A DNA stretch of 64,000 nucleotides from contig JBLYPX010000001.1 of NCBI GenBank assembly GCA_048538235.1, positions 456,013 through 520,012 on the forward strand, written 5' to 3'. A program made the position numbers and the translations under genes. A model generated the notes under the pieces. That model worked only from the letters and a program-made list of their open reading frames with translations. It was not told the DNA's origin and made no database searches. Positions within the stretch are counted from its first letter, which is position 1. Each line of letters begins with the position of its first letter. Source of the stretch: Candidatus Komeilibacteria bacterium. Lineage in GTDB: Bacteria > Patescibacteriota > Patescibacteriia > UBA1558. Below, one piece after another: positions 60,558 through 63,159 of this stretch.

Positions 60558-61622
60558 CTATTTCTTATGTTTAGATAAGTTATAAATTTCTTGTTTCAAT
60601 TTATAGCCCTTACAATGCGTAAGTATCCCTAAATATGATTGCTGAGAACGAAAATAAGCTTTCTTTGTTATTTTATTATCTCTCAACTGACAACTTTGCT
60701 GTTTTAGTTTATTAAACATTCGTTTCTTTGTTTTAGTACGAATAACCCTATGATTAGGCAGGACAACATAACCAAGCCAGTCAAATCCCTGAATAAATTT
60801 CCTGATAATTATTTTATTTGGGTGTAAAGATAAAGATAGTCTACTATCTAAAAATTGTTGAATAGGTGTAATTAAATCAACTAATTCTTTTTTATCTCGG
60901 CTTAAAATGATAAAATCATCACTATATCGCATATAGTACTTTTGTTTCAACTTGTGTTTTACAAACTGATCAAGTTCATTCATATAAATATTAGCAAATA
61001 ATTGACTTGTCACATTCCCGAGCGGCAACCCTGTCTCATAACTTCTTATAACTATATTAGTTAGCGATAAAACATTTTTATCTTTAATCTTTTTAGCTAT
61101 TAACCCATATAATATATCCTGATTTATAGAATCAAAGAATTTCTTTATATCACATTTGAGAGCAAATATATTTTTAGTATTATTAACACTTAATTTCCTA
61201 CTAAAACTTCTTAATCTATTAACTGAGCAATGACAACCTTTATCAATACGGCAAGAATAGGAATCAAAGATAAAACCTTTATCAAAAATTGGGTAGAGCA
61301 CCCTAAACACCGCATGATGTAAAACACGGTCACGGATATTAGCTTTATGAATATGCCTTAATTTTGGATCTTGAACATAAAAAGAAGTATAATGACTATG
61401 CTCATACTTCTTGCTCTGTAAATCTGAATGTAATTGCCATAAATTATCTTCAAGGCTAAATTCAAAAGCTTGCACATCTTTTTTACTACTTTTACCGAGC
61501 TTAAATTCCTGCCACGCTAAAACAAGATTATCTAAACTAATAATTTCATTGAAAAGACTATGACAAGCCCTAATATTTCTACCCCCCCCCGACAAAGTAA
61601 AGTCGAAATTCCCTTGTTGCAT
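60558..61622 (-). CDS. Diversity-generating retroelement (DGR) reverse transcriptase
   Basis: RT motifs: SLDNLVLAWQEF (RT1), RHIHKANIRDRVLHHAV (RT2), FDSI (RT3), GLPLGNVTSQLFANIYM with the DGR-diagnostic LGxxxSQ (RT4), YSDDFII (RT5), LSLHPNKIII and FDWLGYVV (RT6/7). A TR/VR pair lies nearby. Confidence 0.85.
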   Translation of the reverse strand: MQQGNFDFTLSGGGRNIRACHSLFNEIISLDNLVLAWQEFKLGKSSKKDVQAFEFSLEDNLWQLHSDLQSKKYEHSHYTSFYVQDPKLRHIHKANIRDRVLHHAVFRVLYPIFDKGFIFDSYSCRIDKGCHCSVNRLRSFSRKLSVNNTKNIFALKCDIKKFFDSINQDILYGLIAKKIKDKNVLSLTNIVIRSYETGLPLGNVTSQLFANIYMNELDQFVKHKLKQKYYMRYSDDFIILSRDKKELVDLITPIQQFLDSRLSLSLHPNKIIIRKFIQGFDWLGYVVLPNHRVIRTKTKKRMFNKLKQQSCQLRDNKITKKAYFRSQQSYLGILTHCKGYKLKQEIYNLSKHKK

Positions 61623-61937
61623 ATAATAAATGAATTTTTTAAGAAAATATACTCACTATCCAAACAAATACCTAAAGCAGATAGATTTGGAATTTGGTCT
61701 AAAATACAAAATATTTGTCTTGAAAGTATTGAACTAATAATTACAGCTTCATTGGAAGTAAAGAATAACAAGCTTCAGATACTAGAATCTACACGAATTA
61801 AAGTTGAAGTTTTGAAAGGACTTATCAGACTAAGCAATCAATTACATATCATTAAGAACAAAAAATACATTGAACTTACTTCTGATTTGCAAGAAATATC
61901 TAAGATGACTAATGGCTGGATAAAATATCTAAGCTAA
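61614..61937 (+). CDS. avd: Avd-like accessory variability determinant (four-helix-bundle protein, 23S rRNA IVS protein family); start uncertain
   Basis: ...IYSLSKQIPKADRFGIWSKIQNICLESIELIITA... parallels the Bordetella phage Avd segment ...IAQSIPRKHGVAREMFLKCLLGQVELFIVA.... Transcribed divergently from the RT. The track ORF begins at 61560 inside the RT gene, so the start was trimmed to an in-frame TTG. Confidence 0.55.
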   Translation: MLHIINEFFKKIYSLSKQIPKADRFGIWSKIQNICLESIELIITASLEVKNNKLQILESTRIKVEVLKGLIRLSNQLHIIKNKKYIELTSDLQEISKMTNGWIKYLS

Positions 61938-61984
61938 ACATATCTTTACAAAGAAATCCCGTAATAACGGGATTTCTATTTATG

Positions 61985-62101
61985 AAACTTCTAACACGAG
62001 CACGCAAATTGTCATTCACATTGTCAGGATTGTACCAATTCACCTGCAACTTGTCATCGTTCCAGTTGACATTAGGCACATTACCGTCAGAGTTACGCGA
62101 C
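61985..62101 (-). repeat. DGR template repeat (TR)
   Basis: About 117 nt, near-identical to 62396-62512. All 14 mismatches fall where the TR coding strand has A (plus-strand T). TR-frame translation is Asn-rich (SRNSDGNVPNVNWNDDKLQVNWYNPDNVNDNLRARV), i.e. AAY codons. Confidence 0.85.
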
Positions 62102-62388
62102 CTCATTTGTTTACCCAAATTCATCTATTACACCAGTAATCTTATACAAAATTACCTGCGTTAACCAATTCAATGTTGGAATTATTTACAAAGCATTGTT
62201 TATATAAAACAAATCATCTCTAAACCTGAGCAAGCAGTTTCTTAAAAATTGGCAAATCGTTATCTAGTTTATAAAGTTAGACCGATTGTATTAGCCTAAG
62301 TATATTATACAGGTTTTTACCATATAAATAAATTCCCCTTACTTTCTTATGAAAGTAAGGGGAAGGGTTAAAGTTAAAAGGAACAAGG

Positions 62389-63066
62389 TTAAGCAGAAAC
62401 TGCTACACGAGCACGCAAATCGTCATTCACAAAGCCAGGATCGTACCAATGCACCTGCAACTTGTCATCGTGCCAGTAGACATAAGGCACAGCACCGCCA
62501 GAGCGACGCGACCCGGCACAAAGTGTTACATTTGAAATATCCAAATGCTCGCCAGTTTCATCAAAGTATTTCAGCTCAAGAATAAGTCTTTCCATTAAGG
62601 TAATGGAGTTAATATCCTTGGCTTTAAGATCGTTGGCTGAAAGGCTTTTCATTTCCTCGTCTGCTTCTACTCGTTCACGGAAACGAACGGCATAAGATTT
62701 GTCTGAAGTACGAACATCATCTTTAATGTCCTTATCAAGTTTCTCAGTGTAAAACCAAGTCTTGAATTTCTTTTTAAGAACTTTGACAATGTCTGCATAG
62801 GTAAGACCTTGAGGGATGAAGACTACTCTGGTGAAATCATCCAATTTCTCTGGGATTGCGACGCCTGAGAAATCTACAGTAATACGAAAATATTTTCTGT
62901 AGAATTCTTGCCATTCTTCACGGATATTGGTAATGGCGAAGGGATTGCGATGTTCAAGAAATGCTTGAAAATGTCCTAAAGTTAATGAACCATCTCCAAT
63001 TTGACGATGTACATCTGATAATACGCCAGACCAATCCGACATATTGCCAACTACTGATTTACTCAT
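62389..63066 (-). CDS. DGR target (variable) protein, 225 aa, C-terminal VR; no obvious signal peptide
   Basis: Start set at MSKSVV, 7 nt after the GGAG RBS. The track start at 63099 is inside the RBS region. The C-terminal 40 aa are encoded by the VR. Confidence 0.75.
   Translation of the reverse strand: MSKSVVGNMSDWSGVLSDVHRQIGDGSLTLGHFQAFLEHRNPFAITNIREEWQEFYRKYFRITVDFSGVAIPEKLDDFTRVVFIPQGLTYADIVKVLKKKFKTWFYTEKLDKDIKDDVRTSDKSYAVRFRERVEADEEMKSLSANDLKAKDINSITLMERLILELKYFDETGEHLDISNVTLCAGSRRSGGAVPYVYWHDDKLQVHWYDPGFVNDDLRARVAVSA
62396..62512 (-). repeat. DGR variable repeat (VR) at the 3' end of the target gene
   Basis: Aligns to the TR with adenine-specific substitutions only. Encodes SRRSGGAVPYVYWHDDKLQVHWYDPGFVNDDLRARVAVSA. 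The 3'-most ~10 nt differ from the TR by a 1-nt indel, consistent with IMH versus IMH*. Confidence 0.85.
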
Positions 63067-63159
63067 AGCTAGCTCCTTTTTTTTGTTGTTAATTGACAAA
63101 GAACCATTCTTTATCTTAATAGAACATTATACATTATATTAAATATTCTGTCAAGCTCA

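Follow-up and report, generated by a model that had tools for sequence, protein, structure and literature searches.

What kind of genetic element lies towards the end of this Patescibacteria contig, and does any part of it depart from what is known of its relatives? The window that we analysed is a stretch of 64 kb (positions 456,013 to 520,012 of contig JBLYPX010000001.1, assembly GCA_048538235.1) from the genome of a Candidatus Komeilibacteria bacterium, a member of the candidate phyla radiation (CPR). A preliminary description, made from the DNA letters alone, had proposed that the window contains a diversity-generating retroelement (DGR), with a reverse transcriptase (RT), an accessory variability determinant (Avd), a template repeat (TR) as well as an adenine-mutagenised variable repeat (VR) at the 3′ end of a gene for a 225-aa target protein. 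DGRs of the CPR/Patescibacteria were reportedly first surveyed by Paul et al. in 2017. The analysis confirmed that the element is a complete and genuine DGR. Our overall reading, which we hold at a probability of about 90%, is that of a chromosomal, Komeilibacteria-borne DGR of the CPR/Patescibacteria clade that is built as four separate expression units. Only the RNA leader that precedes the TR, which is structured and conserved, may be new.

A complete retroelement with adenine-specific mutagenesis

The TR (62103..61994) and VR (62514..62405) are 86–87% identical and lie at an offset of exactly 411 nt. Their ungapped core of 109–110 nt contains 14 mismatches (15 with the boundary base 62103/62514), and all of them (14–15 of 14–15) are at adenines of the TR coding strand. 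The probability that every mismatch falls by chance on the 29–30 adenines among the 109–110 positions is 5e-10 to 1e-10. The substitutions from TR to VR are of three types (A>G, 6–7; A>C, 4; A>T, 4). When the TR is read in frame, its 30 adenines are without exception at codon positions 1 or 2, as are all of the mismatches. AAY codons make up 10 of the 36 codons of the TR, and a stop can arise by mutation of a single codon only (AAG). The VR corresponds to the last ~40 codons of the 225-aa target open reading frame (ORF) and has a theoretical repertoire of ~4e17 peptides. A 71-aa ORF running across the TR (61909..62124, minus strand) was rejected as a gene because it is the TR read in the frame of the target. 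A gene caller annotated such a TR-derived ORF as a 65-aa gene in a related contig (L051, 3652–3849), an artefact of the copied reading frame.

The 3′ ends of the repeats behave differently from the copied tract. TR and VR carry fixed differences and a 1-nt indel within the last ~11 nt (TR ...CGTGTTAGAAGTTTC versus VR ...CGTGT-AGCAGTTTC), with one further A>C difference after the indel. In three related elements, the 3′-end differences are identical between the multiple VRs of one DGR. We considered the two adenines of the TR sequence GAAG as mutagenised positions but rejected them, because the several VRs of a given DGR have the same bases at these sites. Judging from this conservation, these adenines are fixed differences between the initiation of mutagenic homing site (IMH) of the VR and its TR counterpart (IMH*).

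The RT matches the Pfam family RVT_1 (E 3e-20). Its closest solved relative is the RT of the Bordetella phage, bRT (PDB 8ub7), which aligns over residues 22–306 with an E-value of 1e-45, compared to 1e-20 for group II intron RTs. The RT motifs align as well: LPLGNVTSQLFANIY with IPIGSLTSQLFANVY, LPLGNVTSQ with IPIGSLTSQ, and YSDD with YMDD. The retron, DRT and group II models of NCBIfam all scored far under their cut-offs in a scan of the RT. The ORF on the opposite strand codes for 107–125 aa, depending on the start codon, and overlaps the start of the RT gene head-to-head in divergent orientation. It passes the Pfam profile bAvd (PF22296) with 65.2 bits against a cut-off of 40. Two results count against its assignment as Avd: the NCBIfam model DivGenRetAVD (NF033474) matched with 63 bits and an E-value of 2.6e-17, which is under the cut-off of 80, and a phmmer search of the PDB returned no solved Avd. 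The position and orientation of avd are repeated in ~20 related loci.

These results sustain the preliminary description of a complete DGR, which was upheld by every test run. The recount agreed with its adenine-only mismatches (P ~1e-10) and with the asparagine- and AAY-rich TR that it had described. Its assignment of the RT to the DGR type from the LGxxxSQ motif is matched by the closeness to bRT rather than to group II or retron RTs, and its identification of the opposite-strand ORF as Avd by the bAvd profile. It had also read the 1-nt indel at the 3′ ends as a mark of IMH and IMH*; the indel is real and the differences are fixed among the VRs of the three relatives.

Layout and clade membership

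On the minus strand, the target ORF is followed by a non-coding stretch of 293 nt, the TR, the plus-strand avd and the RT ORF (Table 1). The core order is therefore TR-(avd)-RT with a reversed avd in a Patescibacteria host, as in architecture B3, which is typical of the CPR (Wu et al., 2018, NAR 46:11). DGR clade 2 is restricted to Patescibacteria, and its targets typically have no transmembrane (TM) segment or signal peptide, a feature that is unexplained (Roux et al., 2021, Nat Commun 12:3076). Like the B3/clade 2 elements, the window DGR is chromosomal and combines the same host phylum and target-TR-(avd)-RT layout with an opposite-strand avd and adenine-specific TR/VR differences. Its target is also small and has no Pfam domain, TM segment or signal peptide. 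We found no essential difference from the B3/clade 2 DGRs. The preliminary description had correctly observed an opposite-strand avd overlapping the 5′ end of the RT gene and a small target without signal peptide but had regarded both as unusual. They match the published features of architecture B3 (Wu et al., 2018) and of CPR DGRs (Roux et al., 2021) and are thus hallmarks of a known clade rather than oddities of this element. The DGR is an ordinary member of that clade, and its layout and small lectin-fold target are the standard of the lineage.

Table 1. Features of the Komeilibacteria DGR, with positions counted from the first nucleotide of the window.
Feature	Position	Strand	Basis or remark
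DGR reverse transcriptase, 354 aa	60558..61622	-	GLPLGNVTSQ (LGxxxSQ) and YSDDFII motifs
avd (accessory variability determinant), 107 aa from TTG 61614	61614..61937	+	Pfam bAvd; ATG 61560 is an alternative ORF opening
Post-TR stem-loop, 10 bp, A- and T-tract flanks	61952..61977	-	6 nt past the TR 8-mer, ahead of the convergent avd stop codon
IMH*-like 8-mer GAAGUUUC, TR 3′ end	61984..61991	-	Beyond the transferred tract; complement of the leader 8-mer at 7/8
Template repeat (TR), copied tract	61994..62103	-	30 adenines, 10 AAY codons
Conserved structured leader of the DGR RNA, 193 nt	62104..62296	-	Covariation and covariance model
Leader helix P4 (long-range)	62233..62222 with 62122..62111	-	
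Leader internal hairpin	62158..62151 with 62140..62133	-	
Leader 8-mer GAAACUGC	62234..62241	-	Nearly invariant, single-stranded, directly 5′ of P4; candidate primer or IMH-matching element
Extended -10 box TGTATAAT for the TR-containing RNA	62304..62311	-	Directly downstream of the target terminator
Target intrinsic terminator, 14-bp stem then T-run	62333..62364	-	Predicted; directly after the stop codon
IMH-like 8-mer GCAGTTTC, VR 3′ end (codons A-V-S)	62396..62403	-	Exact complement of the leader 8-mer (8/8)
Variable repeat (VR), mutagenised tract	62405..62514	-	Encodes ...GSRRSGGAVPYVYWHDDKLQVHWYDPGFVNDDLRAR
Target (variable protein) gene, 225 aa from ATG	62389..63066	-	236 aa from TTG 63099; VR at C-terminus
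Target-gene promoter, TTGACA-17-TATAAT	63126..63154	-	Consensus match, 12/12 positions

The target has a ~75-aa N-terminal helical region followed by a C-type-lectin (CLec) fold domain. The AlphaFold2 model, computed from an alignment of 57 sequences, has a pLDDT of 90.8 and a pTM of 0.78. It confidently predicts a minimal CLec-fold variable protein with a ~75-residue N-terminal helical extension, contrary to the preliminary description, which had noted no obvious fold of this type. A Foldseek search of the PDB with the model returned non-significant matches only, and the protein had no match in Pfam or NCBIfam. Sequence identity to the CLec folds of TvpA (2y3c), Mtd (1yu0), TaqVP (5vf4) and FGE-type proteins is only 10–13%. 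Compared to these proteins, the target is much smaller, has a unique N-terminal region and lacks a lipobox, a signal peptide and a trimerisation domain, and it does not match the FGE-sulfatase or DUF1566 families of Pfam. The target has no segment hydrophobic enough for a signal peptide or TM helix (its 19-residue Kyte-Doolittle mean peaks at 0.94). The same sequence (100% identity) occurs as a hypothetical protein in a metagenome-assembled genome (MAG) of Candidatus Komeilibacteria, and all of the source-named proteins among its 134 homologues (~225–230 aa) come from MAGs of Patescibacteria or the Parcubacteria group. Their alignment shows a body conserved as far as TLCAGSR and then a hypervariable C-terminus with the fixed skeleton G.VP.V.W...L.V.W..P......LR.R..VS.

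The same cassette recurs in ~20 of 49 target-homologue loci that we retrieved from GTDB genomes: a target, a TR ~400 nt downstream, an opposite-strand avd and an RT (E 1e-94 to 1e-126). In 17 of these cassettes, 340 of 363 TR/VR mismatches are at TR adenines. Some cassettes vary in layout. One locus (L043, 5736–5933) has no avd between TR and RT, and another (L016, 5864–7452) has an insert of ~1.4 kb between TR and avd and no stem-loop after the TR. Within the window, to which the searches for repeat copies and target paralogues were confined, we found no second VR, no further repeat copy and no target paralogue. The window also contains no tRNA or other RNA landmark. A 189-aa ORF upstream of the target (63325..63894, minus strand) was rejected as a part of the cassette, as neither Pfam nor NCBIfam matches it and the related loci contain no homologue.

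Four predicted expression units

The element would be expressed as four units: a target gene with its own promoter and terminator, a non-coding RNA of ~350 nt, the avd gene on the opposite strand and the RT gene. The ~350-nt RNA would be composed of the 193-nt structured leader, the 110-nt TR, the 8-mer and the stem-loop (Table 1). Promoters and terminators were called as consensus matches, and the functions given to them are putative. The target promoter matches the sigma-70 consensus at all 12 positions in a genome of 32% GC, which suggests strong constitutive expression of the target. Transcription of the TR RNA probably starts at ~62297. Nearly all of the related loci have a TATAAT-like box 5–9 nt ahead of the leader start (conserved GGCUAAUACAAUCGG).

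The gap between the TR and the avd stop codon is only ~46 nt long and has a single stem-loop inside. Of 18 related loci, 17 have this stem-loop, with stem sequences that differ. It is below the terminator criterion of the scanner, which counts against its reading as a transcript end. By analogy with the Bordetella RNA described below, it is probably an Avd-binding stem-loop and/or a bidirectional terminator.

Directly past the target stop codon we also observed a pyrimidine-rich block, TAA(C/G)CCTTG(T/A)(T/A)CCTTTT..CTTTAACCCTT (62362–62391, minus strand). It is kept at the same position in L006, L011, L015, L024, L028, L029, L038 and other loci, whose proteins are only 40–60% identical. In L027, the block is also present in the TR copy (157-nt homology).

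A conserved structured leader precedes the template repeat

We aligned the target-to-TR spacers of 17–18 loci with proteins only 40–60% identical and found strongly conserved blocks. RNAalifold, together with one hairpin added by hand, gave a structure of 34 pairs in four helices. The 5′ domain consists of GGC/GCC and AAUCG/CGAUU helices plus a hairpin and is followed by a single-stranded 8-mer, next to which the long-range helix P4 begins; a further hairpin is internal (Table 1). Among the alignment cells assigned to pairs, 92.5% were paired, compared to 76% in shuffled alignments and 37–51% when the partners were slid. Compensatory changes were found in 24 of the 34 pairs (17 loci). The covariation (0.57 versus 0.26) was reached by none of 500 shuffles.

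A covariance model of the leader, derived from the aligned spacers, matched the window once (62299..62092), with the top score of 164 bits. Of 80 independent metagenome loci with RTs of this lineage, 43 gave a match, in each case on the strand of the RT and ~500–700 nt upstream of it. Helix P4 was 97.6% paired in this metagenome set, with compensatory changes in 9 of its 11 pairs; that alignment (A4) was fitted to the covariance model, which inflates the pair counts and weakens them as support for the structure. The metagenome collection contains more than 580 relatives of the RT, and 13 of the closer ones (46–52% identical) are on contigs labelled viral in IMG/VR. Six of these 13 loci (L135–L147) matched the leader model at E <= 0.01; for a seventh, E was 0.06. 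In contrast, the other 67 IMG/VR loci (L148–L214; RT <=42% identical or truncated) had no leader match below E 0.01. By its distribution in these sequences, the leader is specific to this CPR-type lineage of DGR RTs and a clade-wide feature there. The viral-classed contigs that bear the leader (7 of the 13) could be CPR phages or misclassified CPR contigs.

Rfam, searched with gathering and E-value thresholds, has no family for the leader or TR region. We found no description of a structured leader preceding the TR in the literature searched, the coverage of which was incomplete, so an earlier description is possible. The leader is very probably a real and functional structure specific to the DGR.

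Complementary 8-mers and a proposed permuted RNA topology

The single-stranded 8-mer of the leader is complementary to both ends that flank the copied tract (Table 1). In nearly every locus, its best downstream complement is the TR 3′ boundary. Furthermore, the divergent loci L089, L083, L082, L096, L066 and L081 carry compensatory leader/TR variants (GAGACUUC/GAAGUCUC, GAUAC/GUAUC, GAUGC/GCCUC, AAGAC/GUCUU, GCAC/GUGC and GGAAC/GUUCU). The thermodynamic centroid of the 353-nt RNA forms the pairing between the leader 8-mer and the TR 3′ end unaided (z = -2.9). Fixed positions distinguish the VR 8-mer from its TR copy, and in 24 of 33 loci it is the VR 8-mer that forms the better pairing with the leader. 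The leader covaries with the VR and not with the TR in L059, L081 and L066. Three DGRs with two VRs each have identical 8-mer bases in both VRs while the remaining VR differs, which indicates that the 8-mer is outside the copied tract, the behaviour of IMH and IMH*. The 1-nt indels fall precisely where the copied tract meets the 8-mer.

In the Bordetella RNA, spacer nucleotides 53–56 pair with TR nucleotides 118–121 and A56 primes the cDNA (Handa et al., 2018; bioRxiv 10.1101/2023.10.23.563531). Two nucleotides on, Sp59–70 pairs just 5′ of the TR to form the 'cPRT Stop' duplex, with the TR as a loop between this and the priming duplex (Handa et al., 2018; bioRxiv 10.1101/2023.10.23.563531). 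Immediately 3′ of the TR, the Bordetella RNA has an Avd-binding stem-loop (Sp3–33), as do 207 other DGRs (same sources). The BPP-1 element of Bordetella (mtd-avd-TR-brt) shares with the window DGR a homologous RT with LGxxxSQ and YxDD motifs, Avd, a CLec-fold target with C-terminal VR, adenine mutagenesis, fixed 3′ differences of the IMH/IMH* type, a stem-loop 3′ of the TR and a duplex a few nucleotides 5′ of it. Unlike in BPP-1, avd is inverted between the TR and the RT gene, and the TR RNA would be a transcript separate from the RT mRNA. A 140-nt spacer would not fit 3′ of the TR; the candidate primer strand and the strand that pairs in the upstream duplex are instead found ~130–190 nt 5′ of the TR, so that the RNA appears circularly permuted. 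The element is borne by a cell instead of a phage, and it does not diversify a tail fibre. A primer and Stop strand of the Bordetella type were not found 3′ of the TR; the covarying partner of the pre-TR segment sits in the leader. We also considered a Bordetella-style primer 3′ of the TR stem-loop that would covary with the GTCTC/GTATC ends of the TR and dropped it, because no consistent match was seen by eye.

The local order of the leader elements resembles that of the Bordetella RNA. The 8-mer is immediately next to P4, and ~8 nt separate the end of the 3′ strand of P4 from the TR. The local topology of 8-mer, P4 and TR thus seems to be the same in both RNAs, with the primer and Stop strands 5′ rather than 3′ of the TR, as would result from a circular permutation. 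In the mechanism that we propose, the leader 8-mer GAAACUGC would pair with the TR 3′ end and set the start of the cDNA, P4 would act like the 'cPRT Stop' duplex, and the complex of RT and Avd would reverse-transcribe the TR part of the RNA with misincorporation opposite adenines. The cDNA would then replace the last ~110 nt of the target coding sequence. A permuted RNA fits the B3 layout because B3 leaves no room for a 3′ spacer. The topology is also that of the msr-msd RNA of retrons, in which the priming element is 5′ of the template in the same RNA, with short inverted complementarity to the template 3′ end and structured RNA in between. In contrast to retrons, the window element has an RT of the DGR clade, a protein-coding template repeat, a genomic VR recipient and Avd; a stable msDNA product is a retron feature for which there is no evidence here. 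The retron RT models scored far below their cut-offs and a VR recipient exists, so the similarity to retrons extends only to the RNA topology.

The leader could also be a part of the TR transcript that is unrelated to priming or the IMH, such as a scaffold for RT or Avd binding or an element for stability or regulation, with an incidental 8-mer complementarity. In most loci, the pairing between leader and TR 8-mers is interrupted by a G.A mismatch, to which about half of the loci add a second, central one; this counts against a primer and makes the priming model uncertain. GTTTC also codes for the conserved Val-Ser C-terminus of the target, and for CPR DGRs, too, cPRT-Stop duplexes that join the upstream and downstream flanks were predicted by Handa et al. 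However, an incidental complementarity does not readily explain why, in nearly all loci, the 8-mer finds its best complement at the TR 3′ boundary and why the divergent leaders have compensatory partners. Although the protein sequence leaves the third base of the Val codon free, the VRs have a T there, which matches the leader. The 8-mer also abuts P4 as the Bordetella primer abuts the Stop duplex. On this balance, a leader without a role in priming is a tenable but less favoured explanation, and we regard the priming or permutation model, drawn from the analogy with Bordetella, as having about even odds.

The priming model can be extended to the IMH itself, the recognition of which still awaits a mechanistic explanation. 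The bottom strand of the VR reads as the leader 8-mer followed by the complement of the TR, and the primer RNA may therefore itself define the IMH. This could occur by base-pairing of an RNA-cDNA chimera with the target or by copying of the primer. The more general proposal is that this CPR lineage of DGRs has moved the RNA elements for priming and bounding from a 3′ spacer to a leader of ~190 nt and that the primer RNA defines the IMH. We advance it as a speculative scenario that is rather unlikely to hold in full.

Probable activity and origin of the element

Are the TR/VR differences only the relic of past mutagenic homing by a DGR that no longer works in this genome? The window has one VR only, and a scan of metagenome contigs for the exact TR pattern with N at each adenine retrieved no VR variants, a result in favour of a relic. 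A look-up of the exact target sequence in the contig index returned no record either. Moreover, in ~28 of the 49 target-homologue loci (L001/L002, L004, L005, L008–L010, L012 and others) there is no RT, Avd or TR within 5 kb, which indicates that loss or separation occurs. Some of these 'orphan' loci are probably remote targets. The target of L008, for example, matches the TR of the DGR of L003, which lies on the same contig at a distance of 13 kb; most of the mismatches are at A.

Other evidence speaks against a relic. The ORFs for RT, Avd and target are intact, the catalytic YSDD is present, every adenine of the TR is still at codon position 1 or 2, and the leader of the window has the top score of the covariance model. 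In addition, the closest DGR-bearing relative (L051) has a TR 95% identical to that of the window and carries different VRs. In front of its one TR it encodes two tandem 225-aa targets (1701–3370), whose 26 and 25 mismatches to the TR are all at A. These VRs are unlike each other and unlike the window VR, and the N-terminal regions of the targets have diverged. Because the parts are intact and the VRs divergent in a close relative, we favour current activity: judged from these sequences, the element is likely active, and a relic is improbable.

An origin as a prophage or mobile-element cassette of a CPR host, which would diversify a phage receptor-binding protein, is very improbable. The neighbouring genes are of the housekeeping type (SurA-like chaperone, nucleotidyltransferase, NUDIX protein), the target family consists of a stand-alone 225-aa protein without a phage domain, the cassette is found in differing chromosomal contexts across many MAGs, and the CPR clade was classed as cellular (Roux et al., 2021). 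Finally, a non-DGR element, in which a group II intron, retron or defence RT would sit beside a chance repeat, is refuted: although the best NCBIfam model for the RT is a group II RT/maturase, far under its cut-off, the match to bRT is better than those to group II RTs by ~25 orders of magnitude, the adenine specificity has a P of ~1e-10, Avd is present, and cassettes with A-specific TR/VR pairs recur in dozens of loci.

Implications

As a DGR, the Komeilibacteria element is one more member of a well-surveyed CPR clade and leaves the overall picture of that clade unchanged. Its target family is compact (225 aa), has a confidently predicted lectin fold and lacks a signal peptide, which makes it a tractable model in which to address a question raised by the survey of Roux et al. 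(2021): are the targets of CPR DGRs truly non-membrane proteins? The leader and its complementarity to the TR and VR ends provide a hypothesis, testable by mutation, for how cDNA is primed in DGRs with an inverted avd and how IMH is discriminated from IMH*.

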